Below, one piece after another: positions 5,651-64,000 of a stretch of DNA of 64,000 nucleotides. The stretch is from NCBI GenBank assembly GCA_008632985.1, contig QPGO01000052.1, positions 124,001-188,000 of the forward strand. The letters are read 5' to 3'. The notes under the pieces were generated by a model. The model saw only the letters and a program-made list of their open reading frames with translations, made no database searches and was not told the DNA's origin. The DNA is from Psammoneis japonica (lineage: Eukaryota). The translations under genes were made by a program, and so were the position numbers. The stretch's first letter is position 1; each line of letters opens with the position of its first letter.

Positions 5651-5660
5651 ACAACCGAGT

Positions 5661-21149: not shown

Positions 21150-21840
21150 TGTTTTCAGAAAGCAATGGAATTTTAAAGATCTCAGATGCCAAGCATGTGC
21201 CAGCATGCCTTGAGGACACAATGCAGGGAGCAACAGGACTTGACAGCAACTGGAAAGTGAAGCTGCTCAGTTTGTTGAAAAAGTGTGAGTCCTTGTTTGA
21301 TGGCATGTCAGGTGAATGGAAAGGGGGTCCTCACCACACCCAGCTTAAAGAGGATCATGCTGAGCCATGTTGCTGACAACAGACATCCTTGCAAAGCCCC
21401 AAGGGGATGTGAAGTGATGCCAAGAGAAAGGAAGTGGAGTGCATTTGTGAAATTCTCATCACTGGATGCACAACCAGCTGTGTCTGCAGTGTGCCGCTTC
21501 ATCATTTTCCTTGCCAAAGCAAGATTTTCTGCTGGCATGGTTTCTTGGTGATTTCTGGGAGCTCAACAATGGGGTCAAAAGATTGACCCACCCAATTCCT
21601 CACATCCAGGACATGCTGCATGAGCTTGAAGGCTTTGTGTGGTGGGTGACATCATTGGATCTCCTCAATGCTGGATGCCACCACATTTGACTTGTTGATG
21701 GTGGCAGCCAAAAGATGTGCATGCTTGTCTGCCCATGAGGAAGGTGGTGCAAGACACGCAGGTCCTGCAAATGGGCTCATGCAATGACTCACCCAACATT
21801 CTCTAGGAAAAGATGTCATGGCCATGGAAAGCTTAGAGAG
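21150..21840 (+). mobile_element. Decayed Ty3/Gypsy reverse transcriptase fragment
   Basis: DAKHV...KLLSLLKKCESLFDGMSGEW and DFWELNNGVKRLTHPIPHIQDMLHELEGF..VTSLDL.NAGCHHI correspond to Gypsy RT DFRELNK.IKRKPYPIP.I.D.L..LEGF.YATSLDLNMGYYHI. Confidence 0.85.
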
Positions 21841-22399
21841 CTCATTTTGGTGTGCAAGTGCAACCCCATGTGGGGCTCCATGCATGCATGCGCCATGCAC
21901 AATTCTGTGATGCACCATGCAGACATCATGAAGAGACATGAGGAGTGAAGATGCTGCACTCTACAATGGTGCAACAGCAGAGGCCACCATTTGAAGTTCC
22001 CACCACTTCATGGCAACTGCAGCATTGTCTCTGCATGCAACAATGTCCCACAAGTGTGCATGTGCTGCCATCAGAGTGTTTGGACCACATGCTGAGACTT
22101 GTTTTGTGGCAATTGAAAAAGCAGATGTTGCCAACATGGAAGTTGTTTTTAGGCAGGGTGCCCCATGGATTCAAAGCACAATCTCTGCCAGTCTTCCAAA
22201 ATGACCAAATCATGCATCAGGACCATCTGAAGATCAACGCTTGCTTGGCAGTTCTGAGGCACTCATGTGGGGGTGGTGCAGCAGCCAAGCTCACAAACCA
22301 CCATTTAATGTGCACCTTGGCAGTGTGCCAATGACAGGAACATTGTCGCTGCCCAGTGCATCTCCAAATTGCTGATGTGTGCCAGAACATGACATGTTC

Positions 22400-23130
22400 A
22401 TCAACAATCATTTGTGCTGTCTTGTCAAGAAAGACACACTGTGGCAAGGCTGCAAGAAAGTGCTGACAACTCTGCCACATCATCATCACAAAAAAGTGCT
22501 GTTGGCTGTCTCATGCAAGCTTGAACAACAATGTGATGAACTCCTGCAGTTTGAGCAAAACAGGCTGCTCTCCTTCACACCAGCCATCAATGCTCATCTG
22601 CAGTCTTGTCACATCATGAAAGACACGCTGTTGTGGCACAGCTGTGGGAAAGTGTTGACATGCCACCACCATGTTGTCATTGTGTTGGCACCATTGGTCT
22701 CTCCTTCAAATTCGAACAAGCCAGTGACTCCCACAATTTGAGCAAAAGTGGTTGTTCTCTTTTTGTGCCAGCCATCAGCACTCATCTGTGTTGTGAAGAA
22801 AGACACCCTGCAACAAGGCTGCAGAAAAGTGCTTGCAACACCATCATGAAAGTGGTGCCAGTCTCATGCAAGTTTGAACAAAATGATGAGCTCTCCTGCA
22901 GTTTGAGCAAAATGGGCCATTCTGATGCACCAGCCATTGGCACTCATCTGTGTTGTCATGTCAATGACAACATTGTGCCATTGCATGGCAGCAGAAAAGT
23001 GCTGACAGTTCTGCCACCACACTGTCATCATGTTCATCCATTGGCCTCTCATGCAAATTTGGGAGAGCCAATGACTCCTGCACATCAACCATCAGTGCTC
23101 ATCTGCATTGTTGCATCAAGAAAAACATGA
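22400..23130. repeat. Degenerate tandem repeat, about 4-5 units of 160-190 bp
   Basis: catc/ttgtg..gt...aaagacac...aaagtgc/ttg recurs at about 22409, 22595, 22783, 22945 and 23100. Confidence 0.7.
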
Positions 23131-25169
23131 TGTGGCATGGCAGTGCACAATCTGCCATAGATTGCACATGTCTGTGTCAGCACACCATCTTGTGGATGCA
23201 AAGTGTTGCTGTCACTCATGCTGACAACACTGGCAGGACCTGCATGACAACCAGTTCTGTGTTTTGTCTTTTTGCCCTTGTTTGACAACAAGTGCCAACT
23301 GCCCTGTGGTGTGTTGGCACTCCTTTTGTTCCATGCTTTTGCATTTGTCATTTGAGTGCATCAGCTTCAGCTTTCTGCATCAGGTGTGCCACCACTTGGC
23401 ACAAAGGGCAATGGACAGAAGAGCTGCATCATGTCAAAGGCCAATTGTTTGGGATTTGCCCATGCAGTGGCATGTGATGCAGCATGCATGACAGAAGCCA
23501 TGGCTGAAAGGATGCCCTTCCCCTTGTCCAACTCCATGTCCCACACTGAAAATGAGCACACCACATTTCCAAGTGTCTGTCATGTGCACTTTGCAGAAGT
23601 GCTTGCCTGTGGATTTGGATGCACCTGCACATGGCCAGGGAGGTTTGCTTCATGACATTTGCCTGGTGACTCTGTGACACCTGCATCATGTTTGGCAGAC
23701 ACTTCCACAATCTTGGCACTTGAATCTTCCTGGTGCCTGTGCAGTCACAGTTGCTGTTCACTGTTGCAGAGTGTCTTTTCCAAATCACTCAATTTGGTGG
23801 GACCCCATGTCACATCCACACACAAGGTCTCCTGCAGGATTCTTTTGGCTGTTTTTTGGACTTCTGACAGCTTCTTGCAATGCTGTGTCTGGCATTTCAT
23901 CTCCTGGCATTGTTTGCACTTGACACATGCAGAATGCACTGCAGCATCATGATGCCAGGCCAGTGGAAGTGATGGGCAGTGGATGTTTCTGCACATGTCT
24001 TGCCAGGGCAGTGCAGCTGCTCATGCACCACTCAGCTGGTGGAGGCATTGTCAACACCTCCAGGCAGCACAACAATTTTGTCTTGATGGCATCCTGGCTG
24101 TTGTTGTGTGCCTCCCCCCACAAAGCACACAGGTGAAGGGTGAACTGGAGTGCAGTGCATTTGGCAAACATGCAGCTGCTCTTTTTGCAGCTGCACTTTT
24201 TGATGTCAGCTGCACATTCTGGTCTCCATGCGGGTTTGTGCACAACTTCTTGCACTGATGTTGCCCTTCTCAGATGGTGTCATGTTGGCTCCAACAAGCC
24301 CATTTTGTTCACATTTGCCAACTGCAGCATGACAAGCAACATTCTTCAGCAGAAAATTGTGTGTGTCAAAGCCTTGTGGCTCACACACTGGTTGTTGTTT
24401 CTCTCAAATTTCTTTCTGTCATCTCAGAAACCTTCTTGCACAGGTTCCAGCTCAAGTTCTGCAGGACTCAGAAGAAACTGTTGACAATCTGCATGTCACA
24501 TCTCTAGACTGCTTCTGTCCATGCCAGTGGGTTCTCTTCAACACTGCTTCTTTTTTCCCTCACTCTGAAAGCACTGCCTCTGTTGTTGGATCCCTTTCTA
24601 GCGCAAGCATGAGTCATCCTCCAGTGTCCATTGATCATTCATTTGCTGTGCCTGTTGGCTTTTCTGGGCAAGATCTGGCATTGTTTCTGCATGAAACCAC
24701 TGACTGTTAGCTTGTCATGACTCTGGATGACTGCTTCCATCCACACCAGTCAGTCTTCAATGCCACCTCTTTTCTTTGCTGTTCAATCAAGTCCTTTGCT
24801 CTTCAGGGTAAAAGTGTTGCCTCTGTTGCAGTCCTTGTGAGCATGAATGTGAGTTCACAGAAAACAAAGATGACTGAGTGGAAGAAAACAATGACTCCTT
24901 GCTGCTGTCTAAACAGCAGATGAGTGCTCATGCAGACAATGTGTTGTGGGAGCCCAAAGACTGGGGTGTCATGATGTGGGTGCCACTGTCACAATTCTCA
25001 TGAGCCAAGTGGCTCAAAAGCAAACTGCATTGTGTGTCATGTGCAGAACTGAAAGCACACACATTTTTGTGCAACAAACTAAAATCTTGTTCAATCCTGT
25101 CACTCCTCAGTTTGCTTGAGGAGTCCACAGCAGCAACAGATTCAAAGTCAGATTGACTAAAGGCCTCAG

Positions 25170-25885
25170 GATCAAAGTTCCAAAACATGAGAGGATGGAG
25201 GAGGTTCCAACCCTGGGAGCAACCCCAGTGTTTGCTGAGGATGTCAGCGGGGTTGCAGGAACCTTCAAGAAGTCGAACTTGAGGAAACCAGAGGCAATTG
25301 CCTCACACACATGATGGAACAAGAGGGCGGTGTGTCGCTTGTGTAACTTGGAGTGGGGGATGGTGGCACTGTCCACAACTGACTTGTTGTCCCCAAACAT
25401 GCAACATGTGTTGTGGATTGGGACAACAAGGTGATGCAATGTGATGCACAGATCAATGATCTGTTGTTCAACACACATCCCAGCAGCAACAAACAACTCA
25501 GATCCATGAGTTGCAGTCTCAACTGCAGCTTGTTTCTTGAAGAACCAATCAGCTGGAAACTTGTTGAGGAAATGAAAAATGATGCCTGTGACAGAGCATC
25601 CAGTGAGCATGCAATGGAGCAAGCTTGCATCAACACAATGGGTCATGGTGACAAAGTTGCCAAGAGGGCTGCGCATGTCTTTGGGAATCAGTTGCTCCAC
25701 ATCACCATGTGCGGTTTGAGCCCAGTCATGCACAGGCTTAGAAAGGTCCAAACAGTCGTGTTCCTTGGCATGCAATTGCAGGGCACCATGTTGAATCTTG
25801 CACAAGAATCCACAGACATGTTTGGTGCAATCCAAACAGCCTTGACGGGGTGCAGCATGGAAGCTGGAGAGGGACATGATGGTTG
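25170..25885 (-). mobile_element. Decayed Ty1/Copia RT C-terminus and RNase H
   Basis: SSFHAAPRQGCLD...THCVDASL.H...TGCSVTG...DWFFKKQAAVETATHGSE.FVAA...MFGDNKSVVDS..IPHSKLHKRH...CEAIAS...NPADILSKHWG. Confidence 0.92.
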
Positions 25886-26499
25886 CAGTGATGTGATGCA
25901 GCCCATTGCACTTCTCTAAGATCTGTGACATTGTGAACTGGCAGAAACTGTGGACAAACATGCTGTGGTGCATCCCTTGTGCTGAGGTGTGCAGGGAAGT
26001 CACAGCCACTCAAATCTGACACATGGAATCAATGCCAGCAGTGCCACAGGACCAACTGCGACCAGGATGGGGAAATGCGTGCAGCACCATGGTCAGAGAC
26101 TGTGAAATTCCGGCAACTGAAGGGTCTTCAAACAAACAAGGACCAAAAAAATCGAGAACTGACTCCCATCTGATTGGGCTGATGGACAATTGGGTGGTTG
26201 CTTGGACACCGATTGGAGTTGAACAATCCAAACAGTCCATTGATGATGCAGGAAGGGATGGAATGACGATTTCACAAACTCAAACCAACCAAGATGATGA
26301 CATGGAATCACTGTCCTCATCAGCTGCCACCAACAGCTACAATCTCACTCAGAAATCTCCTCAAAAGCAAGCCAGGCAGTTTCAAACTCGTCATGGTTGA
26401 TCCAACCATTCAGGACATCACCACAGACATGGAGGCAGAGGGGATTTATGACATCACAAGCCACAATGCCCACCCGCTCCATTGGAACTCGAGGCCACA

Positions 26500-28290
26500 G
26501 CTCACTGCTGTTCCCTGGTGATCCATGATACAACCCCTGCTTCCTGCTGACCCAAGAGTGAACCAATCCAATCACAATGAGGGTGAGGAGGACAACCCCG
26601 AACAAAACAATTCCACCCTGGCCCAAAATGAAAACTCTCAAGAAGACCATGGCCCATCTGGAAACAACTCTGATGCTGCTCCAGTGACTGGTGCTCCAAA
26701 GGACAATCAGAGCTCTTGGAACACAGAAACCTCCACCTCAAACCCACCCCCCAGGAGATGGTTCAGCAACTCATGCTGGCGGTTCAGGCTGCACCCAGGA
26801 CCCACTGACACAGGTGCATGCTCATCATCAAGTTCATTGCCAAGAAGGACAGGAGTGAGGCTAGAAAATGCCATCAGGATGTCCTGGCAGAGAACTGCTC
26901 CAGGAAGTGGACACATCACACATGCCATGCCCATGAAGAGAGGGCTTGAACAAGAAGCCACTGACAAAACCACAAGAGCCACCCAAGAATGATGCACAGA
27001 TGAGGGAGCACTTTCACAAGTGCTGTGTCACCCAAAAGGAGGTGGAGGCTTTTCACAACAACTTCATTAGAAGCAACAAGTCCCACAACACCATCATGGA
27101 GGAGGTTGACCACTTCTTCCAGGACAACGATGTCAGACTGTACCCTGGCTCAGTGCCACTTCCACAGGAGCTCTCCAAGCTGGGTTGGCTGCTTTGTTCC
27201 TTTGAGGACCACAACCGTGAAGCCCACAAGGTTGTTTTCCAGGAAGCCGTGGGCCAGGAGGCAGGCTTTAGATGGAGAAATGTCAATGTGCAGGAACCAG
27301 GCCAGAGGCGGGACATGAAGACAAACAAAGTCTGTGCTTTCGAAGCCAAAGCTGAAGCCAATTCCAAAAAGGAACACCAAGGCAGGAAGGCTCTGCAGCG
27401 TGTTTGCTCCTCAAAAGCAAAAGATAGATTCCCTTCAGGCCAATGCTGCCATTTCGTTCCAAGCTGTAGAAACATCTTCAATGACTGGTCAAAATGGGGT
27501 GCACAGATGCTGCGAGCTGGGTGAGACACTTTTGTCAGGATGATGAGAAGCAATGACTGCTGCCAGGAATCAATGGACCAGATCTTTGAACTTGGCTGCA
27601 AATCTGAAAGTCAGCCAAACAGCAAATCCTTGTGTGAGGCAACAATGCAGATGGATTCCAACAAGCACCCAGGAGAGAAACTTTTCCCAGTCATCAACAA
27701 GCACAAGAAAATGCCGGGATGCACAAAATTCAACTTTTTGCCCAAGCTGTCCAACAAAGCAACAGGAAGAGAATCACCAGTCTCCTGCCACTCTTAAAGC
27801 ACCACCACTCAGATGAGCAACACCATCTGAACTTCATGACTGCTGCCAACAAGCTGGCAGACTCTCTCATCTTTGATCCTTCCAATGGCGCAGCAGCAGC
27901 AACTGAGGAAGACCTCACCCCAGCTGAGTTGCTTGAAGGAGACAAGGATCTTTAATTCACAAACTTCACAGACAGATCCAAGCCTGGGGCAAGCAACAAA
28001 CCCAAGCTGCCTGAACAACCAGCCCCCAAGATGCATTGAAGCCAATGTGATTTCTGCCCGGATGTCACCAACAAATCTGTGGCCACAATGGGCTCAAATT
28101 GCCCATTGGAACCAGGCCTCATCAACTTAATTCACCAGCTTCAATCAACGCAAAGCACACCCACCTTAGCTGCAGATGAACCAGAACAGATGCAAACACA
28201 GACAGCTGAGATGGAAGCCACCATCAGGAACCTTCAAGTTGCAGACAGCTTCATGTTTTTCTCCCTCACAGCCAGGCAGTCTCTGAGCTC
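26500..28290 (+). mobile_element. Probable decayed ORF1 of a diatom-type non-LTR (LINE) retrotransposon
   Basis: LGWLLCS...GFRWRNV...VCAFE...CSSKAKDRFPSGQCCHFVP and SLCEATMQMDSNKHPGEKLFPVINK resemble diatom LINE ORF1 blocks (GWLLYS / GLRWR / FP.G.RMRFVP). Recognised from memory only; no ORF2 seen. Confidence 0.55.
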
Positions 28291-29959
28291 TTGAGTCCCC
28301 CCTCCTTTGCAGCCATGCAGGCTCTGAACTCTTTCCTCTCCTCCTCCATCCCTTTCTTGGCCAAAGGCACCTCTTCACTTGATGTGCTCAAGATGCTCAA
28401 AAATGAAAAAAAAACATTGTCAAGCAACTTGTCTTCCTTCTCTGCAACCAAGCAATGCTGCAACAGGTTTCCTCCTTTGCACTTGCCATCATTTGTCATC
28501 ATTTAAAAGCCACCCTTCCTCAGCTCATGCCTGCAATGGTGTTGTTTCTTTGGCATGCACAGGAAAGTCAGTGACTGTGCTGCGTGCTGGTCCTGTGCAC
28601 ACCAAAAGTGAGAAAGATGGGTGACTCTCTTTTGTCAAGACCAAATGGTTCCACCAAATGGCTTGCCCTCCCAAATTTCTTCATGGTCATCCTTGAAATC
28701 TCAGCTCTGCCAATCCTCTTGGGTGGTGAGATCATTGCTCTCTGAAAAGGTGTGCTTGCACATTGGGTTTGTCATCTCCAAAAAAGGGAGCCAAGCAGCA
28801 TGTCTCATGGGACAGGGAACAAATTGTTGTTTCTTGTTGACCACTCCAGAGCATGCTCCAGTTTTCAGCTGTTGTGGTCAGCGTGTGCAGTCAACACCAG
28901 CCACATGCAGCATGCTGAGTTTTGTGCTTTGCTTGTGCACGTGGAATGATTTGTAGAAAGGACATGCAAATGGCAGAGTTGCTGGGACCAATCATTTCTC
29001 TCCTTTTAGTTTGCTGCACTGTGCAAGCATGCATCATGGCAGCACAGGGGGGCCTGTGGATCAACAACTCAGGCCATTGAGGACACAAAGATGATGACAC
29101 ATGCAGGCACAGCAATGCAGGCACAGCATGCACATGTGCACACATGATGACATGCAGACAATGTCAGAGCCAAGAAACTTAAATGCAGCTGATTCAAGGA
29201 TGAACAATCAGCTCTTGGCAAATTTTTAAACAGCTCATGCTTTGTTCATGTTGTTTTGAATGCCTCTCTTGAGTTCCCCCAAACACTTGGAACAGATCCA
29301 CTGCCCACCAGGGCTGCAACACCTTCCATGCAATGTGTGCTGATCAACCTTCAAATTCAAAATGCCAATTTTTGAATTTACCACAGCTGTCACATTCAAC
29401 AAGCAAACCACTGTTTTTTGCCAAAAATGCACTGATTGTGGTTGGACAAGGCACAACTTCCCAGGAAATGCCAACAGCTGGCATTTGACCGGCTGCAGAT
29501 GACATGTCCAGAGTTGCCAAGCTGAACATGATGCATGGCCATGATCATCATCATCAGTGGACTCTTTGTTGTTTTGCAAATGGACAAAAGTTGGCTCATT
29601 GTTGAAATTTATTTGGCAAGCACATGTGATGATGCATCTGGTTTTTTTCAAAACTTGTGCAAATTCTGAATGAAGCCAGCTGTGGGCCAAATCAACACAG
29701 CCTCATTGCAGCCCATGGTGCAAATCAACAAGAGAATTTCCACATTTCCTGCTCACACCACTCCATTTTCTAGAGACAAACCAGCCTCACAACAACTTTC
29801 ACAAAATGCAGCTTTGGCACCCTCTGCTGTTTCCCCATGTCATCACCTGACAGTGCACCAGGCACAGTGGTGTTGCTCCCACAAGTGCCCAAGGTTGTGA
29901 TGTCAGCCACACCAACAACAAATCAACCAATCATGAATGAGCAGGTTGAGCCACATGAA

Positions 29960-30230
29960 CTCTGCTGAAATGTCTGGAGAAGAAGGCATTGTCAAAAAGA
30001 GAGTGCTTGACATGTGAGCTCAGGAACTTGCCAGAGCTGATGCTGACAGCCCAATGCACAAGCTGAATGTTCTGCACTTTTTTGCCAGTGTGTGAAGTGC
30101 ACACCCAGTCATTGTGTCTGTGCAGTGCAGGCTGGCTCCCGCTGTGTCATGGCAGGGCAAAATGACACATGTGTCTTGACATTGGCAGTGGACTTCCCAG
30201 GCAATGGCCAAACATGAAGATCAAGCCGCA
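29960..30230 (+). mobile_element. Gypsy-type gag fragment, copy 1 (heavily decayed)
   Basis: gagctcaggaac...atgctgacagccc...gcacttttttgc is homologous to 31180-31460. Confidence 0.5.
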
Positions 30231-31149
30231 GCACAGCTGTTGGAACATTCTCAAGATTTGCTCAAGAACAGCAGCACCCATGAGCTTGCTGATTTTTTCA
30301 GTTTGAACACTTGCAAGTTTAGCCTTCATGTCATTGCTTTTTCTTTGGAGTCTGCAACATGCTTTGATCAGGGAACAGGATGGGGGGTGTTGGCACACCA
30401 AGAGCACAGAGATCCACATCTTGGACCAGCAGATCAAGTCCATGAGATGACTCTTCTCACTCATCTCACAGACATGCAGTTGCCATGGCCACAGCTGGCT
30501 TCTTGTGTGTCTGACACCCCAGTTCCACAGTTTGAGCAATTTGAGGGCCTGGGACCAACTGACACACTGACTCCAGCTGCTGACAGTTCTTGCTTTTGCT
30601 GCACACTCAAATGCATTTTCATGTGAGCTGTCCTTGCCGCACATTTGTGATTCCACTTTTTCTGTTCACAGCCCAAATGTGTGCCTGCTGCAGAGTCCAT
30701 TGTCCTTTCTTTGAATTTTCTTTTGTCTGACCCCAAGGTGACACCAAAGCAGCTTGTCACATCAAACCACTTTGCAGCTTCTTGTGAAGCATGATTTCAC
30801 TGCTTTGGGCCATGGTGGTCAGGGACACCACCCCCTGACCATGCCAGGTGCACACAACTTGTGTTGTTGCAACTGGAAATGAGATGCACTTGGGCTGCTT
30901 TTCCACTGCTTTTTGGCTGGCAGTTTGAACTCAGGTGGCTCATCATCACCAGCAGGCATCAACTGATCAACAATTGACAAGCACTCACTCAACACTCACC
31001 TTCATCACAGAATCCTTGTCTTTTCTTGGTGTTTTTTGGCATGAATTGACCTCTGAAGCTGCAGGATTCTTGTCTGCCAACTCCCTTCTTTTGCACACAT
31101 TCATGCAAGTGTGCCAGGTTTCAACGCCACAGTTGATGAACTGACCAAT

Positions 31150-31460
31150 CATGAAGAAGTGGAGTGAGCTGCCAATTCCTTTGCAACATCTGGAGAAGAG
31201 AAGGCACTGTCAAAAGGTGAGTTTGACATTTGAGCTCAGGAACCCTCCAGCCAATGCTGACAGTCCTGTGCTTGAACTGAGTTTTCAGCACTTTTCTGCA
31301 GGTGCATGTGAAGAGCACCTGTTGTTCCTGTGCAATGTGCAAACCATGTTGTGGCAGGGTAAAACATTCTTGCCCTTTGTCTGGAGAAGCATCAGGAGCC
31401 TGTGCACCAGCTGCTTGAAAGCAGCACCTGGACCATGTTTGAGATGATGCATCTAAAGAA
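31150..31460 (+). mobile_element. Gypsy-type gag fragment, copy 2
   Basis: FELRNPPANADSPVLELSFQHFSAGACEEHLLFL resembles diatom Gypsy gag FKLR.NP.DADSP.YE....F..GT.EEWL.F. Confidence 0.55.
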
Positions 31461-33432
31461 CACATTGAATGGAGACCAGTGCATCATTTGAGGTGTGCAT
31501 CAAGTTGAAGTTGCCAAAGACAAGTGGGAGGAAGGTCATGCCAAGCTTCTTCCAGGCAACAAAGCTGCAGAGCAAACAGCCCTTGGTGTTGGTGCCTGCA
31601 GCAGCAGCCGGTGGAGGTGCAGAACTTGAGGCACAAGACAACTTCATGCATGGAGCATCACAAACACATCATCCCAACATGCAAAAGATTGGAAATGCAC
31701 CAGGATGGAAGAAGAGAAAAAAGTCTCAACATGGACTGTTGTGGTGTCACAACCATCTGAGATTGCCTTGATCACAGCTTTCTAAAGATTGGCATGGTTT
31801 GGACAAATTGAAGAAGCTTCAGGAGCAGCCACAAAGAGAGAGCTTTGTCCACAATCAATCAAATCTGTTCAAGATCTTCAGTCAGTGCAGCTTTGGCGGT
31901 GACAAGGTCATGAACGCTGAGTTGTCACCAGCAGATGCAGCCCATTGCCAGTTGCAAGCAAGTGAGCTGCTGCAAAACTTTGAGAAACAAGGCTGATGAG
32001 CTTTTGCAAGGACAAGCAACGTGCACATTTGAAATCACACAAACAAGCTGTGCAAACATGGTGTGTGACTTTGACTCCAACAAATTGTTCACAGAGACCA
32101 CGCCAGCTTTCATGGCTCCGATTGCAGCAGATTTGATTGACCTTGAGTTCTTCCACAAGAGAAATGTGAGATGTCCAAAATGGTGTCAAGCTGACAACTG
32201 TTAAAACAGAGGCTCTTCCATGAGTTAAACATGGTTGTTGCTGACATGGTTTTTGGACCAGCAGATGGCAATGAGGACTGCCCTCCTCCCTGCAACAGCT
32301 CATCAACATGCCACACCATTTGTTGTTCCACACCTTGCTTCCAGGCTGTGGCTTTGTCAAGCAGCAGCTGCTTTTGCTCTGTTTCAAAGCTGCAAACTGT
32401 TTTGTGGTGTGTGATGGAATGATGAGTCTGCCCTCAAACTTGCAAGTCCATCCTCTGAACCAGGTTTGACAGGTGATGCAGCAAAAAGCTTCCAAAGAGA
32501 CAGCTTGCCCCACTTGCAGCAGCATGTGAGTGAAGCTGTGGGCAGAGAGCAGGGCACAGTTCCCAGCAGCTGGTGAGAGTGAGGAGCTGACAAAAGCTTG
32601 TGGCTGGCTGGGAGTGTCATGAGAGGGCCCATGGAAGAAATCTGGAGTGCTGCAAAAGGAGGCATCAGCAACAGCCAGATGGAGAGCTTGGCAAGCCCAA
32701 CAAAGCTGTGCAAAGGGCAGAGGTCACCAAAAGTGACAGCTCAGAGGAGCTCATGTTCAGAGAATTCTTAAGTTGCTGCTGTCAGATGATGGTGAGGGTG
32801 CACTCATTGAGTGTGTCACAGCAGGCCAGGAGGAGATGCCTCTTCCCTCATCTCAGTTTCTGTGTTGCATCTGAGTTCTGTTCAGGGTGCATTTTAAACA
32901 TCCCTTCCACTGAACCACTGTTTGTGTGAACCACAGCAACATTTTTTTATTTTGTCCATGGTGTGCTCCTGCATGGTGGTTGCACAGAGCCCATGTGCTT
33001 TTTCTCAACACCAGGAGTGCCCCCATGGCATTTTGTCTCTTGTTCAGATGAGTCAACACATGTTTGTCAAACACAAAAATGTCACAAGGACAGCCTGAGG
33101 ACATTTGAAGACAACTGGCTGTGTTTCTTGAAACAACAAAGATCAAACACAACAAAGTTCCAGCCTGCAGAGTCGCAAGTCAAATGCCAAGTGTGATTCA
33201 TGGATGATGCTTCCAGTCATCAATCTCTGCTTCTGGAAGAAATGTCCATTGAGTCTTCTGGCAACAGCAACCAGAGTGACACACAAAACCGTCAGGTCAA
33301 AATGCAATCTCCAGTCAATTGTGATTGTCATCCTCTGCACTGCATTGTGATGACATCCCATCCTGCAGTGATCTTCTGTGCTGCAATCCTGTCCTTGCAG
33401 TTGATCTTTTGTGTCAAATCCTCATCCAGCAT

Positions 33433-36400
33433 CATGTCTGATTCTGATGCCACTGCTCCCAGAAAGGATCTGGAAATGTTCAAGAAGTTTGCCGAGGCTT
33501 TTGCAGCCATGCAAGCATCCAACGCACATCCACCCATCCCAACCCCCATCCATGGTGAATTGCATCCCTCTTGTGGCATGTGCCTTGGTGGGGCTCTTCT
33601 CTTGATGACACTCTCAGCATTGCCATCCAAAGGCTGTCAAGTCCATCAAGCAATCCCTTTGTGAACAACTTGCTTCAGCAACTGTCTCAAAGTTCATCAG
33701 TCAAATCAAGCTGTCCAACGGTCCAAGCACCAAACTGGACAAGAAAGACTTTGTCAAAACCATCCAAGACCTTGTCAGTTGCACGGGCAAGAAATTTTCT
33801 GCCATTGAAAGAGGACGTCTGTCAGCAAGGTTGTTTGTCTGTTAGACTCCCTTCATGCCATCTCTGTCAGCAACCTTCTTGAGAAGGAGTGCAAGTCTTG
33901 TAATGCTGCTTCAGGTGACAAAGGCTGTGACAATTACAAGAAGGACAATGTCGGTCTCTCTCAACTCCAAGTCAAGTCTCAAATCACGGAAACGTCCTGC
34001 AAGAAGATCAAAGTCAAGTTCAACCACATCAAGGACTTCAAGGATCTTCCAGGGTCAGTGTTGTTTGTGATGGCTCTGGACACTTGCAATGCAAGTGCTC
34101 TTGTTGATGTCAAGTCCACCAAGGAGAAGCTCAAGGCACTGTTGCTCAAGTTCCACCCTGGCAAGGATTGCACTGAGCTTGTGGCCAAAGCTCTTCCTCT
34201 GGCCAAGATTGTGAAGATGGACTGTGTGCTGCTGGTTGACACAGGTTCTGCCATTTTAACCAAAGCATCCAAGACTTCATCCAAGTTCTTTAATCATCAA
34301 GCATTCTTGAAGATGGATGATGTTAAGAAGATGGAACACAAAAGTGTTGTCTCTGCAACCTGGCTAAAGTGCCAAACCACTCTGACTGCACAATTTCAGG
34401 GCCTGTTGGCCACATTGGCTGGATTGCCATGACCCATGACAAGCTCATCAGTGATGAAGACTGGCCTGCCTCAACAGCTAAACTCCCCGAGTCGAGCAAC
34501 ACTTCCATCAAGGACAAGCACTCACCAAGCATGCGTGTTCTGCATGTGAGAAAGAGCACATGGCAGTGCAGAGGGTGAAAGCAGATGAGTCCAAGAACAA
34601 CACAAAGAAGACAGACAGGGGCTCACCATCTCCAAAACCAAAACCTTCCAAGCCCACCTGGCATTTCGTGAACAAGGAACCCACCCTCACTGATGACAAA
34701 GGCATGCTCTGGAAATTGTGTGACAAGTGCATCAACAAGGAAACCAGTGAGATGGGCATGTGACAAGGCCATTCAAGTGCTGAACACACCAGCAAATTTT
34801 CACCCACCTCCAGTGCCGCTGCTTCAGCAAATCTCTCTGCTGCAAATGATCCTTCTGTGGGTGTCCCATTTGGTCCTCCTGAGCAAACAACGGCTCCACC
34901 GATGGACAAGGACTCTGACGCCAATGAAGAACTTGTCCATTGTGGCATGTGGTGTGCTCCTGTTGACAATGCTGTGGGCAGCCCTCCTGTGGTCATTGCT
35001 TCTGCATCTTTCACTCCTGCTCCAATGGCCAAGAGGGAAACTGCCATGGCCACACCTGCTCCAATCTTGGTCAAGACAGTTGACCCCAAAGACACTGACA
35101 ATTTCCACAAGCTCTCCAATGCTCTGTCCTCTTTTAACTTGGAACTGCCAGCTCTTGAGTTGTTTTCAGCCTGCACACTGCATGAGAGATCAAGAATCCA
35201 GTTGTGTTTCATGACGCCACATCAAGTCACATGGAAGGACTGTCAGACAGCATGTTGGCTGACCTTGTGCATGAAGCAAGCAACCCAGCATCTTTTAATG
35301 ACACCTGTGAGAACTCACCTCCAAGCATCCACCATCACTGGTTTGACTTCTGTGATTCTGTGACCCTGAAACCACTTCTGTCATCAATGACTTGCCGGGC
35401 CCCTGCAGATCCCAGACAATCCACTCACGCTCAGAGGCATGGACTGCTTTCAAACTGCCTCCACCGGACACACCTGATGTCCACATTGAAGTTCCCAATG
35501 CACCTGATGACCCTCCAGTCCTCTGCCTGTGCTCCTGCAGAACTGCCACCAGGGTTAAAACCACCACCTGCCGTCACTCTGCCTGAACCTGCTCCTCCAA
35601 CAATGCCAACAACACCGGAATCTCCTCCTGCCACTTCTCCAGAGTTAGCTCCTCCACTGTGCTGTTCAAGTTGATCAAACAAGGGTCAGTTGCTGTCTGA
35701 AAGGTTCATGGACAAAGTCTTCTTTGCTCCAGCAAACTCAAAAGATGAGCTGCTTGGGACTGCAGCTCAGTTGGTGCATCTTGCTGCTCTGGACACCTGC
35801 ATTGATTTGCAGACCTGAAACTTTGATGATCCCAGGGTTTGCGCAAAGGGTTTGTGCAACTGCAAAGAAACACAAGGACCCTGATGTGCCATCCCTGCAT
35901 GAAGCTGTGTGCAGCCACAGGGCCAACAAATGGGTCCATGAAGATTGAGATGAATGCGCTGCTCCACTCGTGCATGGGAAATGGTGCCAAGGACTGATGA
36001 CATGAATGCATTGCCTGGCACATGGGCTTTCTGGCTTAAAAGACTTTCTGATGGTGCACCCTTGAAGCACAAAGCCCAGTGTTGTGTTCATGGTGATTTG
36101 CAGATGTGCAAGGTGTTGATTGTTTTAAGACCTGTGCGTCATGCAATGGTCATTAATTTGGCTTCTCCTCACAATGGTGCTCAAAGAAGGTTGGACCACT
36201 CATCAAATTGACTGTGTTTCCAAGCTGATGTCAAGGAGAAAGTCTGTGTGGAGCCTCCTGAGAGTTTTCAGCAGAAATCAGGTGCTGACTTGGCACCAAA
36301 ATTGTTGAAAGACCTGCATGGACTCTGCCAGTCTCCCAAGTGCTTCTGTGAAAAGCTGCACCATGGATTGATTGAACAAGGATGGATTCAGTCTGCTGTT

Positions 36401-37540
36401 GACCCTTGCATTTGTTTCAAGAAGGGCATGTTGTGCATGGCATGTGTTGACAATGACTTGTTCACCGGAGTGTCATCTGTAGAACTTGAAGCTGAGATTG
36501 CCAAATTGGGTGTTTCCAATGATGAGCAATGCCATGCATTCAACCTGCATGATGCAGGCAAAGTCGGCAACTTTTTTGGCATCAAGAAGATCCAGAAACT
36601 CAAGGATGGCTGCTTTCTGCCAACCCAACCTGGCCCAATTGAGAAAGTGCTGCATGCCACCCAGACAGAAAACTGCAACAGAGCTCCTGCTCCCACACTT
36701 CCTGCACCTGCTGGCAGTGGTTCTGAAGGCCCATCATTCGATGAACCTTGTGGCAACTGTCGGCCCATGGTCGGCATGTTGACACATCTGGCATCCAACA
36801 GCCACCTGGACATTGCCTGTACCACCCACCAAGTTGCTCAGTTCTCCTTTGCTCCCAAGGCCTCCCATGCTGTTGAAATCAAGCACATTCTTTGGCACTT
36901 GAAGGACACTGCTGACAAGGGTCTCATCCGAGCACCCACTGCAGATCATTGGCTTGATTGTCATGTTGTTGCTGATTTTGCAGGACTCTTTGGCATTGAA
37001 GATGGACAAAACCACACTTCTGTCAAGTCACACACCAGTTGTGTTGTTTGTTGTGGCAGATGTCCCATCATCTGGGTGTCCAAGCTGCAGACCCTGGCGG
37101 CACTTTCTGGGATGGAAGCCAAGCATGTTGCACTCTCCCAAGCAATGTGCGATCTCACCCCCCTTTGCAAGATCTTGAAGGAAATTAACACACACATCTT
37201 TGCACAACCGGATGCTCACAACAAGGCAGCTGCCCACTCCGAGGCCTTCCTGCAGGCCAACGACAGCACCGATTCCTCACCCATCAATGCTGCCAACCTG
37301 TCAGCATCTGTTGTGCATGAAGACAATGCTGCTTGCCCCCAGCTTGCTTGCATGCCTAAATTGTCCCCATGAACCAAGCCCATCGGCATTCCATGCCACT
37401 GGTTTTGCACTGGGGTTGAGGCTTTGGAGATCAAGATTGAGCCTGTCAGCTCTGCTGCACAGCTTGTCTGCCATTTTGCTAAAGGATTGGCCACTGATGT
37501 GTTCTGAATTGGTCGTAAAGCCCTCATGGGCTGGTGGCTG
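33433..37540 (+). mobile_element. Decayed Ty1/Copia (CoDi-like) element: gag, Pro-rich linker, RT and RNase H; protease and integrase not seen; no LTR recognised
   Basis: Gag knuckle WKLCDKC...HSSAEH (about 34710-34790); KDPDVPSLHEA; MNALPGTWAF.LKRLSDG...KHKAQCCVHGDLQ; LHGLCQSP; QSAVDPCI; ACVDNDL; CHVVADFAG; WVSKLQTLAALSGMEAKHVALSQAM; VHEDNAAC; ends RKALMGW. Confidence 0.93.
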
Positions 37541-37549
37541 TCACCGCGT

Positions 37550-40500
37550 CTAGAATGCTGCTGTCTTAAGTCTCTCCTTACAGTTTTATGCAGTGGTTTG
37601 CAAAATGGTTTTATTGCGCTCTGTGCAACTGATTATGAAAAACCTGACTGCCCGTTTCATTTTGTTTTCTTCGCCGTTGCTTTCTTGATGGACGTCTTGT
37701 TTCGGCGCTTAAGAGTCCCTCGATCCTTCTCTTCAAGCCTGACGAAGTGAGTGCAAGGCTCAGTGTCTACGAGGACACCATGCTTCGCAAAATATGCCAC
37801 TGCATGCTTGGCCATCACGTTTTTGACCCTGTCCATGCAATCCACGATGACAAGATGTACGCCTTCTTCTTTCAGAAGCAACGCCATTTTACTTCGAGAT
37901 TCTTCACGGCACAACAGTTGCGCCTCAAATCCTTTGCTCGCACAAAAAGGGACGCATTTCTTGGACGCTACCCATTGGCCTAATTCCTTTCGAATCGCCG
38001 CTTTGGACATCTTTAATCCCCTTCTCACGTTTTTGTCGTGAACCATGTTAAGGAAGATAAGACGAAGCATGTCCGGAATGCAATGGCCTGCCGGTGCAAG
38101 CCCTTTGTCGAAGCTCAATCCGGTTTTTGAAGCCTCTGCTTGAGTCATCAACCTAGCGCCTGCACCACTTTTCCATCTCTTGACACGATGTCCTTTTTCC
38201 CAAGGTTTGGCAGCCTTTTCTACAGCTTGCTCAGAGTTCCCGGTCGCAGCAGCAGGTGGAGCCCCTAAATCTAGGCTGTCCAAATCGTCGCCTTCACTCA
38301 CAGCTGCTTCGGTGTCTTCTGTCATGGCATCAGGCACCCCCCCCAATGACAGAGCCACCCAAGTCACTGGCACCTCCGCAGCCACCGGCGGCAATGAAAC
38401 GCGTGGGTGCACCGGCATTGGTTTCTTCTGCTTCCTCTTCTTCATCAGAGTCACAAAGAGCAAGCTGCAAGTCACCCTCGCCAGAAGATCCATTGTAGTC
38501 TCTGTCTCTGTTCAGCAAACGAGACGACATGGTAGAAACTGAATGATTCGAGCAAGTGGAAGTGGACTTGCTTGTTGGATCCGTTGACCCATTGGTCTCA
38601 GTCGCATCAACGGTTGTGTTCGAAGCCAGGCCCAGCCCATCCGACGCTCCTTGAATGGGATGGCCACGCCACCCACCAGCTTCACGGTCACGGGCTGTCG
38701 TGGGAAGCATGGGTGCCTTGGCTGCTTCTTCCTCTTCTTCAACAGAGTCGCAAGCATCAAGCTGCCTCTCAACCTCGCCAGAAGATCTGTTTTCTGCACC
38801 TGCATTCAATGAAATGAGATGATGCCGGCAAGAGGCAGTGTCAACAACAATGAAATCACACAGGCAGTGATGAAAAGGGAATCATCATCTTCTTGCCTGA
38901 AATTCGGTTGTGGCTTGATTCTTTGGACGAAGCGGTGGGAGCACCAAATGAGTCATTGGACAGGATGCCAGCGGCAGCAACAGGTGAAGATCCCAAAGGA
39001 AAGTCACCCAAGGTGTCAGATTCACATTCTCCATCGTTGCCAAAAGATGCATTTTCAGAGTCTGTGTTCAATGAGTGAGATGACACCGATGAGAAGGGGG
39101 TCGCATCAACATTGACAGCAGACAACAGAAGCAACAAGCAAAACGTGGGCAACTGTCCCACCTGCAGTTTGTTTGCGTTTTCTGGGAGAGGGCTCGTTTG
39201 GCAAGCCACCGGTTTCACTTCCTGCATTGGCAGCATGTGCCAATCCGCCGGAAGAATCGCCCATTTGGATTGATGACGCAGCAACAACAGGTTCTGTAAC
39301 TTTGGGCGTGGGATTTTCATCGTCTTCTTGGTTTGCTTCTTTGTCAGGCTCTTGCATGGGGAATGAATCCATTTCATCAAATCTCATTGTGGTCTTGTGA
39401 CAATCATCTCTGCGCTTGAAATTCGGCATTTCCAAATCCATGGTAGAAACGGATGCGTCCGGAGAAGCAGCCTTTTGTTTCCCCGTGTGCTCAGTTGATC
39501 CCGATTTCAAACTTACATCAGGCATCCTGGCTTGGATCTTCCCAAGTTGACTCGTGACAGCGGGTGCGTCCAAGACAACAACACGGGCAGAGCGTGCGTC
39601 CACACGAAACGAACAAGATGTGAAAGTGGTGAGAATAAATTCCTCGTCAAGAACAAGGCACAGCGAAACAAACCAAACCATTTTCCTGCCTGTGATGTTC
39701 AAGGCATGCTCTTTCGACAGACCGGCCATTTTTGGAGTTCCATTTGCAGCTGAAGGTGAGGCTTGGGCAGCAACATGTGCACCTTCATTGGTGGCAGTGT
39801 TCTCGTTCTCGGAACGACCGCACCGTTCACCACCACATTGCAAAGTTCTCTGTTTCTTGGGAGCTGCAGCTTTGCCGGTTGGGACAAGTGGAGGAGCTGG
39901 AACTGTGTTTCTTTGCGAACGACTCATTTTGAATTCACAATTGCTCACAGACGTCTTGGCTTGGTCCGTCCCACTGGGACTTGTGTTCTTCTTGGCAGTC
40001 ACACCATCAATTACATCGCACTCTTCAGGAATGCTCGGAAGGGGATTGAGTGCACAATGTGGTTTCTTCTTCTTGACTCTGGCTTTTATTTGCACTCTAG
40101 ACTCAGGCTTGCTTGCAGCAGAAGTGCTCACAGCAGCGGCGACGGGGTTGCCGGAATGAGCGCAGTGGACACGCAGACGATTCGCACCATCACAAAGGAC
40201 CCCCTTCTCGTTTGGAGCAACAGCTTCCTGTCCTGTGGGAATCGGCGGCTTTGCTGTGCCAGCTGCAGCAGCAGCAGCGCGAAGCTCACTTGTTTTCTCA
40301 GAAGCCATGTTCTGACGCAATCTTCGACAGTCCGCATCACGGGCAGCAGTTGCTTGTGGTGACAGGGTGCCAGACCGTTTCAAATGAGCGCCACTGCTGA
40401 GTTTTTGAGATCCAGTGTCAGTCAGTGTTGCGCCAAAAGACATGGTCGTCTTCTTGCGAGCACCAACAGCTTTGATTGTTCTCACGGCTAAGTCGGGGGC

Positions 40501-41530
40501 TTGGCATTCACGGCGACCATCGGAAGTGATCCTGCAATGTCCTTCCCAAGGGCTCCATTGCCACTTCTGTTTGCTGTCAGGTGTCTTGGCTTTGCCAGCA
40601 CCACGTGGACTCTTCTTCTTGCTGGCAGCAGCGCCTTGTGCATTTCCTGCATTCACATCATGATTGTTTTGATGGTTGCCCTGCTTNNNNNNNNNNNNNN
40701 NNNNNNNNNNNNNNNNNNNNNNNNNNNNNNNNNNNNNNNNNNNNNNNNNNNNNNNNNNNNNNNNNNNNNNNNNNNNNNNNNNNNNNNNNNNNNNNNNNNN
40801 NNNNNNNNNNNNNNNNNNNNNNNNNNNNNNNNNNNNNNNNNNNNNNNNNNNNNNNNNNNNNNNNNNNNNNNNNNNNNNNNNNNNNNNNNNNNNNNNNNNN
40901 NNNNNNNNNNNNNNNNNNNNNNNNNNNNNNNNNNNNNNNNNNNNNNNNNNNNNGAAGCTCCATCTGTGCCCACATTCAACAAATGAGATGAAATTGACAA
41001 GAATGAGTTTCATGATGACAATCATCATCATGCAGGAAACAAACAAAGCGAGTCACGATCTCACCTGGACCTCGTTGGCGCTTCTTCACGGAAGATTCTT
41101 CTGGGAAGCCGCCAGCTTTGGCGCTTCTGTTCAAAACTTGTGGCTTTCCAGCGGCAAACTCACTCGTTCGTTTCACATGCGCTGCACGTGAAGATGGCAT
41201 TTGCTTGACAGCATGCGATTTGCTTGTCCCATTTGTGGCAGCAGCACGGCTTTGACGGTCTTGAGTGTGGGACAATGTCGAGTCGGGCAAAGGAATGTTG
41301 TTGGCAAAATGGTGCCAGGGAGACAGCATCTTTTCATTTGATGGCTTCGCTTCAACAAACAGCTTCCACCTTTTGTCCCAATTCTGGTCATTGTCTCGTT
41401 TGCCCTTCCTCCGTTTAGACTTTCCATTGTGCGAATCCCGAGTGCGCTCTTCACAGAGGGCATTTGTTGATGGTGAATCCTCCCATGGTGAGTCCTCATC
41501 CAATGACGACGGTGCCGTGAATGTCGCCAT
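37550..41530 (-). pseudogene. Inverted, mutated and 3'-truncated paralog 'B' of gene A
   Basis: MATFTAPSSLDEDSP...NALCEE..DSH..KRRKGKRD matches A MPRFTAPSSSDEDSP.ANPLYEK..DSH.SKRRRGKRD. GHCIPD, KGFEAQ, EGVHLVI and HAVAYFAKHGVLVDT match the A C-terminal domain. Upstream sequence is also homologous; intron-2 splice sites are destroyed. Confidence 0.88.
40687..40953. other. Assembly gap (N run)
   Basis: Continuous Ns. Confidence 1.
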
Positions 41531-43601
41531 GCTTGATTTTAATGGCCTGCAAGACAACCTTCAAGCTTCACTTGCGGGAAAGACGAAAACAAAGCATGTT
41601 TGTCAGAGAGAGACAGAGATGGGGAGACTTCCACAAAGAGGAGAACGGACAAATGCAACAGCGACACAAAGAAATTCTTGCCTCTCGCCAGACGGAAAGG
41701 ACAACGGTTTTTCAAGTCGATTTCAAACTCGACACTGCCGGTAAATCCGAGCTTTGATTTGTCGTTTGACACCTGCCAGAGCGTCTCTCAACGTTGCTGC
41801 AAACAGAAGTGACACACGAGACGCACGACAAGGAAATCGAACGCAACAACAATCAGAATGGAACTGCACAAGACCAACACTCACCGCTTGGAAGCCAACA
41901 AAGAAAAACAATCGACCAGCAACAAAACGGCTGAATTTGGAAATTTGAAAATTGTGAGCCAAGTCGCGGACGGCCCAACGGATTTCTCGCTCTGGCGAGA
42001 ATCTCGTGGTAGTAAAATCAACGTAGGTTTTTCGTAGCCACGAATTTCGAGCAAACTGAGCGCGCGGTGCGCGCGTGGCCGACCGAATGTTCGCCCTGAA
42101 TGAATCGATGTTGTGTTTGTCGCTGTTGACATCCTCATCAACCATCAACCACCGCATCGTCGATCACAGCACCAATTATTCTCGTTAGTTCGAAAGTCGG
42201 AAATTCTTCAATGTACGTATGGTCGAATCGACTTGACCATACCGCCAGTTTTGAAAGCATACAAAAGAGTACTTGAGCAACGGGAACATTCACCATACAA
42301 TGTACCGGTAGGCCCTACCTGTACAAGGGCTTATTGAGCATCCCAAACAACGAAACGCTTTCGAGCACAGTTCAGTGTGGAGTGCAGTGTGGGGCAAGTT
42401 TCGTAGACAAGATGATACCTCTCGAGTTTGATTATTTGATGGATGGATTGGATGATGACTGCCGGCCGTGTTGCGTAACAACAAAAAGAGTTGAAGTAGC
42501 TACCCACCAGAACGGAAAAGCGACGCGCAACTTGCCTGCGCGTCATTATCGCTCCTGAGCAGGTCGAGCATCCCAGTTTGAAGAATCGTCTCGTACTGAA
42601 TTAAAACGGGTGTACTGTATGGAGCACCCGACATCAAGGAAACTAAAATTCACCGCTTCGGACGCACAGGTCGAGCTGGAAAAGAGGGCCAAGGTTTGTT
42701 GGTGCTACTACCCTTTGAAGAGACCTTTTTTTAAGACAGCGAGGACGGCGAAGACGCTTGGAATCGATACTGTACCCGTCGAGTTTACCGGTGATGAGAG
42801 TTCTGGCTTGCTCGCAGAAAGATACTGCGCAAGTCCTCCTCCGTGCGAAGACTCCTTACGGTGTTCTGCATCCTTAGTATTGCAATCCCTTGGAGCCCGC
42901 TGTCAGATCGTTTGAAAGGTCATAGTGGGCACTGAGATCTGTGTTGCCTTTTTCCAATGAATTTGGACTCATGAAAGACGGTGCGGCACTGATGCTTTCT
43001 CTAATGGATCAAAGAACCAATTCCCACTGTTTCGAAACTCGGAAATTCTTCACCGATTTTCCTGAATGAGCCAAGGCGTTTGAGAGGAGTCTTCCAAAAA
43101 TTTCAAATTCCTGTTTCGACAGCTTCATGACACTAGTCTGTATGAATCTCGAACGTCCATGCACCATGCGTAAAGAGTTGTGTCTGCTTCATGTGTTTCC
43201 TTCGTTGTGGGCTTTCCAAGACCCCCTGCATTGGCAAAGAAAACCAGCAAGTCTCTGTCTTTGTGAAGCTTTTGCAAGTTGGGTAAGTTTTGGTGCAGTC
43301 CAAAGGTGTTGCATCCGGCTTGGTTACCTGCCGGTATTTCACATTGAAAGGAGTCTAGCTAGCTAGAGAGAGGGTCCTACAATCACACTGCAGGCTCGCA
43401 TTGCATTTTTAATTTGCTATGGCCGTGTGGTGCCGTGTGGTGGGTCTGTCTGTGTAGTACCGTATGTAGGTCTGTGCTGGAACGTGGAGCCAGACAGACC
43501 GTCACTGTTTTATGTTGTACTAAAAGCTGAATAAAAATATTTCGAATTTAACGCCTGCCGTACGACCACTGAAACAGCGAGCACCACTTTTAGCTTTCCC
43601 G

Positions 43602-45021
43602 TCAATGCAAATCGGGTCGAGATTGGGAACGTAGCGCAAGGTCAAGGATCACATGAAAAGACAGCATCCGCCACTGTAGCATCAGACAGCATACCGTTGC
43701 CATGACCGGCGGACAAGTGAAAGAACGAGGAATGCCACCTTTGATCGGAGATGCAGTGGCTTTTGTCATGAGGGGAATTGGCCCGAAATCTATTGGCTTT
43801 TCCAGGTGCAGCATTGACCAGCACATTCTGAAAATTGCTTGCACGTCCTTGATGTGTGGGGTGGGGAGAGAGCGCAGATTGCTTTGCCACAATGTGCTCG
43901 AGACAGATGTCGTCGAACGGCGCTTGGCTTCTGACCACAAGACACTGGAGACTCTGCGAGAGGAAGTTGTTTCAAAGCGGTGAACAACACTGGCATTGTC
44001 ATTGAACAATGAACTGTTGAGAATGCGTCTCCGATTGACATGCCATGCCGCTTGACATGTGACGTAGACCGGAGTCGACTGCAGCTGCCGGCACTCATCA
44101 TCATGAGCTGTCAGTCTGACTCTGAACCAGAACCGTCCCTAACTGTTTGCTTAATTGTAACCACTGAATGCTGATTTCGAAGGTAGAGCAGCATGTCAGC
44201 AGCAGCAAAGACGCACTTCAAGTGCTTGTCCCACACTTTGGACTGGCTCGGCACTTGGATGCAGGCATGCTGTCGTCCAGCATTTCTCCGCGCCCAAGAG
44301 CGCAGAGACATCTGAGGAGAATGAACTCCTGATTGCATGCAAGCTTTGTTAAAGTTGACCGATTCGACAGCTCCAATGAATCAAACTTTTTTGTCGGGCA
44401 AAGGGTGATCAGGATGGTGTGAAAAAACTTGAAGATTTTCTCGAGCGCTTCTTTCATTTCGCTCGTCCAATCATCCTGCGAGTGAGTGGGCAGAACCGTT
44501 GAAACAACCGCAATGTCACCGTCCTCTTTGTATCCAGCAAAGGTCAGTGAAGAACAATCGTGAATCCTTGATGACGTGATGTGAGTGTTGTCTCCGAAGA
44601 GTTGGTCCGGTGTTTCCTTGTTTCGGATGAAATGACGCACCGGATCCATCTTGGAATTGGGAGGAGTGATTTTATGATGGCTGGGTTGTTTAATTGGTTT
44701 GACAGTGCTATTATGACGTTCAAAACGGACTGCATGTATTGCATGTTAGGTTGTTTGTCTGTTGCATGCCCCGCAGCACAGCGTTGCATCACAACCTCTC
44801 AACGCGACAGTGCTGCCAAAGCAACTGACGCATGTTGCACATTTGTCGGCACAACCCAGCTCATAACAGCTTTCAGTTGAAGTATATATTGCATTCTCAC
44901 AACTTGTACACGTCTTCTCCGACGAATAAAACGATCCGAGCTCACATTCAACAGTCACCCCGTTTGACCGAGACGAACCACCATGCACTCTCCGAGCCCT
45001 TTTCTTCGCTGACATTGACAT
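43602..45021 (-). pseudogene. Fragmented gene remnant with an N-terminal RING-like Cys cluster
   Basis: CTSC...ELGCADKCATCVSC...CCGAC in 44746-45051, followed by broken ORFs 44218-44649, 44111-44338 and 43602-44009; partly TA-poor. Confidence 0.4.
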
Positions 45022-63900: not shown

Positions 63901-64000
63901 TACGTGCAAGCTAAGCTCCTCCAAGCATCGATCACTCAAGTCATTCGGGTTTCTCCATAGCACGAACTGCATCGACATGCATCTCGCAGTTTCATCGAGT

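Follow-up and report, generated by a model that had tools for sequence, protein, structure and literature searches.

Probable TpA-specific hypermutation within a sharply delimited stretch of nuclear DNA from a diatom

We analysed a stretch of 64,000 nt from Psammoneis japonica (assembly GCA_008632985.1, contig QPGO01000052.1, positions 124,001 to 188,000 of the forward strand), referred to here as the window, and its central feature is a domain at 38273..42009 that has lost nearly all of its TA dinucleotides and retains CG. We consider it likely that this is a bounded domain of nuclear DNA in which A:T to G:C transitions specific to TpA, converting TA to TG or CA, ran almost to saturation. Its coding content identifies the window as nuclear DNA of a diatom: for a conserved open reading frame (ORF) the best relatives with a name belong to Attheya, Odontella, Synedropsis and Thalassiosira (54-66% identity), and the protein-atlas clusters closest to a PPR protein are mostly from Bacillariophyta. 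Together with CpG to TpG/CpA decay, most simply deamination of 5-methylcytosine (5mC), the TpA process would also account for the disappearance of both dinucleotides from the transposon islands nearby.

TA loss in the domain at 38273-42009

The domain, which like the other composition domains and runs of N below is given without strand, shows observed/expected ratios (O/E) of 0.06 for TA, 0.71 for CG, 1.60 for CA and 1.35 for TG. A run of 267 N within it (40687..40953) was excluded from all counts, and the remaining 3,468 dinucleotides include 13 TA and 159 CG. At the background frequency 141 TA would be expected (Poisson P = 6e-44), and at the frequency of the paralogous sequence at 1-4000 the expectation is 114 (P = 2e-33); the background range of TA O/E is 0.4-1.0, far above the domain value. 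A preliminary description of this DNA had counted three TA against roughly 50 CG in 40954-42005 and about ten TA in a CG-retaining stretch at 38.3-40.7 kb, and our recounts gave 3 TA and 55 CG for the former and 10 TA and 101 CG for the latter (38300-40700).

Borders were placed by maximum-likelihood change points fitted on the TA share of TA/CA/TG steps, with every TA and CG listed. The right border lies at 42007|42010 (2-lnL support 41923-42010, delta lnL 22.5), the TA share being 3/186 inside and 57/276 beyond, and TA returns at 42010, 42013, 42024 and 42035, in agreement with the sharp border near 42005 and the dense TA after it that had been described. The left border lies at 38272|38277 (support 38266-38347). 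When TA and CG were profiled separately within the window, no CG change point was found by maximum likelihood at either border. A public DNA-run contig (from a run that may share its sample with the assembly) crosses the right border, covering 41584-42182 with 0 differences from the window; the border sequence is therefore not an assembly artefact.

The two dinucleotides differ in the outer 510 bp of the domain (41500..42009), where 2 TA (O/E 0.06) coexist with 33 CG (O/E 1.11), compared with a CG O/E of 0.64 in 38273-40686 (P = 0.002) and of 0.58, 0.69 and 0.71 in the first three blocks of the domain. This segment has lost TA without detectable CpG loss.

Most of the domain is occupied by a gene, copy B (about 37657..41560, minus strand), which encodes an acidic-repeat protein with a C-terminal Cys/His/Asp domain and is the old inverted paralogue of copy A (1..4025, plus strand). 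Copy A has kept TA (O/E 0.51) and CG (1.02) and thus polarises the changes in B; the two lie one on either side of a transposable element (TE) island. They are colinear, and with a transversion divergence of 0.155 and 0.136 per site on the two sides of the TA border they are identified as old duplicates. Copy A has 36 TA sites whose counterparts in the alignment fall in the TA-poor part of B; in B, 21 of these read CA or TG, 4 read TA and 11 have some other dinucleotide, whereas in the reverse comparison 1/7 TA sites of B face CA or TG in A. Changes of CG to TG or CA in the same part are likewise unequal, B having lost 34/76 of the CG sites of A against 11/49 in reverse (P = 0.013), and CG losses in the spacer next to the domain are equal both ways (10/42 and 8/31). 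Copy B has hardly any Tyr codons left where it is TA-poor and is therefore probably a pseudogene.

These comparisons bear on whether the poverty in TA could be historical, representing either a mosaic or gene-conversion tract derived from a heavily mutated copy or an ancestral or selected composition. A left border inside a gene would suit such a history, as would the frameshifts of copy A relative to B in the C-terminal part and the DNA-run contigs that are 88-99% alike, which indicate that close relatives or alleles exist. However, the transversion divergence from A is similar across the border, the depletion extends over coding and upstream DNA and over every reading frame, an O/E of 0.06 is far outside the background, and TA survives at the same motifs as in the islands. 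A conversion donor would, moreover, itself need the same hypermutation, and we regard a historical origin as very unlikely.

The family of copies A and B has only three homologues, all distant, among 1.84 billion representatives, and a Pfam scan of A, B and these three homologues returned no family. Their C-terminal domain holds an invariant Cys, a Pro-Asp, a His and an Asp. Its predicted structure is poor (pLDDT 56.7), and a Foldseek search of the PDB with that model gave no match at E <= 0.001; the weak top rows were papain-like cysteine peptidases, a hint of low confidence that the domain may be a papain-like peptidase.

Strand symmetry and target motif

The summed share of TA, CG, CA and TG, i.e. 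of all pyrimidine-purine (YpR) steps, amounts to 0.245 for the background, 0.243 for the island and 0.234 for the domain. As this total is constant, TA and CG were turned into CA and TG by transitions alone. AA is undiminished (O/E 1.17-1.24 vs 1.07-1.10) and G+C is unchanged at 0.47-0.51. CA and TG are elevated together, their order along the island is random (runs-test z = -0.01), and strand-coordinated clusters sought by the same test did not exceed background. In five duplicate pairs inside the island, 64 adjacent CA<->TG double differences occur in 1,632 aligned nt, against 0 in 1,373 nt of three background pairs; such doubles are expected when a single ancestral TA or CG is converted in place, and independently, in the two copies. 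Both DNA strands have been hit equally and independently, and the DNA was changed in place.

Survival of TA in depleted DNA relative to background depends strongly on the flanking bases. It is highest for TTAA (0.77), followed by CTAA/TTAG (0.29), GTAA/TTAC (0.11) and CTAG (0.10), then by ATAA/TTAT (0.065), CTAC/GTAG (0.064) and ATAG/CTAT (0.053), and is lowest for GTAC (0.013), ATAC/GTAT (0.005) and ATAT (0). In absolute counts, 40 TTAA remain in 35.3 kb of depleted DNA and 30 in 20.6 kb of background. A fitted two-strand model gave cumulative hits of 0.2, 0.86, 2.06 and 2.43 for A, G, C and T as the 3' base, respectively, and motif-dependent survival in the domain is as in the islands. The hit strand could be assigned because the mass balance of tetramer products favours ATAA to ACAA (not ATGA), GTAA to GCAA and GTAG to GCAG, and because 14 of 21 polarised A/B events have a pyrimidine (Y) at +1 on the hit strand, compared with five on the other strand. 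The target is thus 5'-T-A-Y-3', with T-A-G hit less often, T-A-A hardly at all and TTAA nearly spared.

Strand symmetry and the 3' context also speak to a route through RNA, in which ADAR-like A to I editing of transcripts would be followed by reverse transcription and reinsertion into DNA. ADAR enzymes prefer a 3' G, and editing fixed by retrotransposition would leave A to G changes on the sense strand only. Here the strands are equal, the sense strand of a reverse transcriptase (RT) remnant showing five Tyr to Cys and five Tyr to His replacements, and the 3' preference is Y > G > A. The island does contain a Copia-type retroelement, and a U 5' of the edited A is preferred by ADARs (bioRxiv 10.64898/2026.01.13.699255, Discussion), both of which would fit editing. 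The changes also reach a tandem repeat, however, as well as a non-retroelement gene and the DNA upstream of it, and we regard this route as extremely unlikely.

TA loss and CpG decay in the neighbouring islands

The degenerate TE island lies at 8201..37479 (TA O/E 0.07, CG 0.12, CA/TG 1.8-1.9), with its left edge masked by a run of 927 N (7274..8200), and a second island occupies 61030..64000 (TA 0.04, CG 0.29). The signature of 5mC-type CpG decay, CG to TG or CA, is accordingly present in the islands and partly in the domain. Only one of 44 long ORFs (39 in the first island and five in the second) matched a Pfam family, RVT_2 at 36212-37369, with 30.5 bits, slightly below the gathering score. 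This ORF corresponds to a Ty1/Copia-type RT/RNase H remnant at the right end of the first island (36212..37372, plus strand), with 12 homologues at 40-48% identity, seven of which carry PF07727. Compared with seven intact homologues, the remnant has His (5) or Cys (5) in place of all ten conserved Tyr, and the 12 conserved Arg have likewise all been replaced, by His at five sites, by Gln, Cys and Lys at two each and by Trp at one, while conserved Gln (8/8) and Cys (4/4) are retained. For a foreign or mobile origin of the targets the islands offer this one remnant, and the 3.7-kb domain is a lineage-specific gene paralogue.

Between the first island and the domain lies an unaffected spacer of ~800 bp (37480..38272; TA O/E 0.41, CG 0.83), which forms the 3' portion of copy B and whose homologous sequence in copy A is 3000-3568. 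Being normal in both TA and CG, it rules out that the domain is a fringe of the 30-kb TA/CG-poor island.

At the right edge of the first island the TA border (37477|37480) and the CG border (37510|37514) nearly coincide, so that both processes spare the spacer and stop together there. At the second island, the TA border (61023|61035, support 61023-61071) is ~125 bp outside the CG border (61150|61157, support 61128-61177), with support intervals that do not overlap, and its final 500 bp (63501-64000) are TA-poor (0.09) with a CG O/E of 0.71. Across 124 windows of 500 bp, none combines CG <0.30 with TA >=0.40, and five combine TA <0.15 with CG >=0.60. Expressed as -ln ratios, TA loss exceeds CG loss 7.8-fold in the domain and 7.2-fold in a milder zone at 43500-45000, a ratio that saturates in the old islands at 2.3 and 1.1. 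TA loss has thus been roughly seven times faster than CpG decay and reaches a few hundred bp further.

This partly supports what the preliminary description had proposed. The results support erosion of TpA as a process distinct from 5mC deamination and not its by-product, as it consists of A:T to G:C changes at TpA that are saturated where CpG is only ~30% decayed; it is faster, by ~7-8 times in two domains, and wider, as seen in 41500-42009 and at the second-island border. The claim that TpA loss is uncoupled from CpG loss was right as to a separate, faster and wider process, but full uncoupling does not hold, since CpG decay affects most of the domain. Domains, and probably targeting as well, are common to the two processes, which makes 'uncoupled' too strong a word.

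Shared domains would be expected if TA loss were a side effect of T:G mismatch repair after 5mC deamination, with non-canonical mismatch repair and error-prone, Pol eta-type resynthesis at WA motifs accounting for both losses through one mechanism. Pol eta favours A to G at TA, and the two losses occur in the same domains and end together at 37480-37514 and at 38273. Nonetheless, 41500-42009 lost 95% of its TA at a CG O/E of 1.11, and TA loss is ahead of CG loss everywhere, no window among the 124 having lost CG and kept TA. The Pol eta signature, mutation of A at AA as well as at TA together with some transversions, is likewise absent: the O/E of AA is not lowered, and conservation of the YpR total leaves no transversion component. 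Outside the window, six of 80 related Copia loci of other organisms, all taken from metagenome contigs, are decayed at CpG (CG O/E <0.40) with TA kept (>=0.40). We therefore hold repair-associated mutagenesis to be very unlikely and prefer a separate process acting on TpA.

Among these 80 loci the closest relative, L001, has CG at 0.11-0.49 and TA at 0.35-0.57 in its element body. In L001:1501-5066, L016, L080, L040, L046, L056 and L030, CpG has decayed to an O/E of 0.11-0.38 with TA at 0.35-0.75. Since related Copia loci decay at CpG with TA kept, CpG decay alone does not remove TA. A single locus of the 80 has lost both (L023:1-1789; TA O/E 0.04, CG 0.20, CA/TG 1.67); it is an unrelated Copia-type metagenome locus without nucleotide similarity to the window, and the count of one is a lower bound because the search patterns disfavour hypermutated copies.

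Several other features of the window accompany these domains. The first island holds 39 false ORFs of >=130 aa on both strands, which arise because TAA and TAG are gone and only TGA stops remain. Within it, 19700-20320 has near-normal CG density and, from 20022, near-normal TA as well, and 18750-20020 to its left has 28 CG sites and only two TA; the patch may have been inserted more recently or else be protected. The left-edge run of N of the island lies between tandem repeats. Those on the outer side (5659-7273; periods of about 200 and 328 bp, 91-98% alike) have kept TA and show few differences, mostly YpR transitions, and the inner one (8421-9191; 387 bp, 82-84% alike) is TA-poor with ten CA<->TG double differences. 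To the right of the domain, a milder TA-poor zone (43640..44760; TA O/E 0.22, CG 0.77, CA 1.43, TG 1.51) covers two minus-strand ORFs without Pfam matches and is possibly an early stage of the TpA process. Tandem, signal-anchored paralogues of a prolyl-4-hydroxylase-like 2-oxoglutarate (2OG)-Fe(II) oxygenase at 45346-46844 and 49320-50908 are 84% alike over 389 nt and keep TA, and duplication alone is therefore no trigger of the process.

Known systems and a candidate mechanism

The only description of an adenine-directed TpA process that we found, and the system to which the window appears closest, is the localised TpA to TpG/CpA hypermutation of integrated nucleocytoplasmic large DNA virus (NCLDV) and virophage DNA in Bigelowiella natans (Mettrop et al., 2026 preprint, bioRxiv 10.64898/2026.01.13.699255). 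According to its main text, of 231 mutations that arose de novo in two regions of integrated viral DNA, 230 were A to G or T to C, all of these GC-biased changes fell on TpA, and the de novo mutation rate in culture was ~1000-fold above background. TpA-depleted, CpA+TpG-enriched clusters were also reported genome-wide, some with reverse-transcriptase and DDE genes, and the agent put forward was a homologue of ADAT2 (bioRxiv 10.64898/2026.01.13.699255). As far as that text describes them, the two cases share A:T to G:C transitions restricted to TpA with both TpG and CpA as products, confinement to bounded regions amid normal background (here with borders at 38272|38277, 42007|42010, 37477|37480 and 61023|61035) and long-term TpA depletion with CpA+TpG enrichment.

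They differ in host, a chlorarachniophyte (Rhizaria) there and a diatom (Stramenopiles) here, and in target, viral insertions there as opposed to transposon islands and a decaying gene paralogue here. Depletion is also less advanced in the NCLDV region of B. natans (Rho 0.45) than in the near-saturated domains of the window (O/E 0.04-0.07). CpG decay runs alongside in our case, whereas 'CpG' is absent from the main text of the preprint, and the T-A-Y preference with sparing of TTAA has no counterpart in that text, which gives no 3' context (its supplements may bear on it). The B. natans mutations were observed de novo, while the window is known from standing sequence alone. The main text of the preprint makes no mention of diatoms, and our literature search brought up no account of such hypermutation at TpA in any diatom.

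Fungal repeat-induced point mutation (RIP) resembles the process in the window as an in-place, dinucleotide-specific, transitions-only hypermutation that affects repeated or foreign DNA in domains whose edges are fairly sharp. It differs, however, in that RIP acts by CpA to TpA and raises TpA and A+T in DNA that is duplicated; in the window TpA O/E is 0.06-0.07, CpA O/E is 1.6-1.8 and G+C is unchanged, and RIP is rejected. Decay of CpG in methylated transposons, a substrate known from Phaeodactylum, where DNMT5 methylates TEs (PMC9998398), is matched by the change of CG to TG or CA in the islands (O/E 0.12) and in part in the domain, but is incapable of removing TpA. TadA/ADAT2-type deaminases and the TadA-derived DNA base editors offer another comparison, from which the window departs by being hit at T-A-T as often as at T-A-C. 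TadA and ADAT2 convert A to I beside a 5' T (U33-A34 in tRNA), and T-A-C resembles the anticodon loop of tRNA-Arg. To our knowledge, natural activity of such deaminases on DNA has not been demonstrated in algae.

Differences between the window and DNA-run contigs offer a hint, at the level of sequence, that the TpA process may have been active recently in the domain. Among the 40 differences listed out of 276, 34 fall in the domain, and 29 of those 34 are YpR interconversions. These comprise 11 with TG or CA in the window against CG in the read and five of the reverse, five with TA kept in the read, and four TG<->CA doubles (eight rows). Contigs over 41584-42415 show 0 differences.

A number of observations weigh against TpA-specific hypermutation as set out here, or against parts of it. 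The DNA-run differences may mix alleles with paralogues. No tRNA, Rfam family or repeat end was found at either domain border, and the left border falls within gene B. The background against which survival was scaled is gene-rich DNA, an approximate stand-in for the ancestral composition of the islands. Depletion in the milder zone at 43500-45000 ranks as TAG < TAC < TAT < TAA, which is not exactly the motif, on small counts. A model with a constant rate ratio of ~7:1 fits two domains and fails in 41500-42009, where CpG loss is nil, and the constant ratio is also broken at 20320-21350, which has almost no CG and still some TA, including many TTAA. Finally, we know of no natural ADAT or TadA context in which T-A-T is the target.

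In the explanation that we favour, two chemically different processes would occupy the same domains. The TpA changes would be made by an enzyme with adenine-deaminating activity on DNA (A to inosine, read as G), which may be a relative of TadA/ADAT2-type deaminases, and the enzyme would be directed to silenced chromatin or to foreign or repeated DNA, as has been proposed for B. natans in the preprint. The 3.7-kb domain would then be a younger or less methylated silenced domain around a decaying copy of a lineage-specific gene, and for that reason would seem to be affected at TA only. More specifically, and only tentatively, diatoms might possess a DNA adenine deaminase directed to chromatin or foreign DNA and specific for T-A-Y, acting as a RIP-like defence several times faster than 5mC decay and reaching slightly past the methylated zone. 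Because a rhizarian alga bears the same TpA signature, such a system could perhaps be old and widespread in the stramenopile-alveolate-rhizarian (SAR) lineage.

Domains of the kind found here hide transposons from profile searches and yield long false ORFs. As domains of different stages adjoin in the window, it lets one read which of TA loss and CpG decay comes first and how their speeds compare, and the motif, with T-A-Y hit and TTAA spared, is sharper for enzyme hunting. The TpA signature would be extended to diatoms, which are major primary producers of the ocean, in a saturated form that covers tens of kb. Hypermutation as a genome defence has been known in the form of cytosine deamination, by RIP in fungi and by APOBEC enzymes in animals; if the tentative reading of an old and widespread deaminase system is true, eukaryotes would have a further arm of genome defence, one based on adenine.

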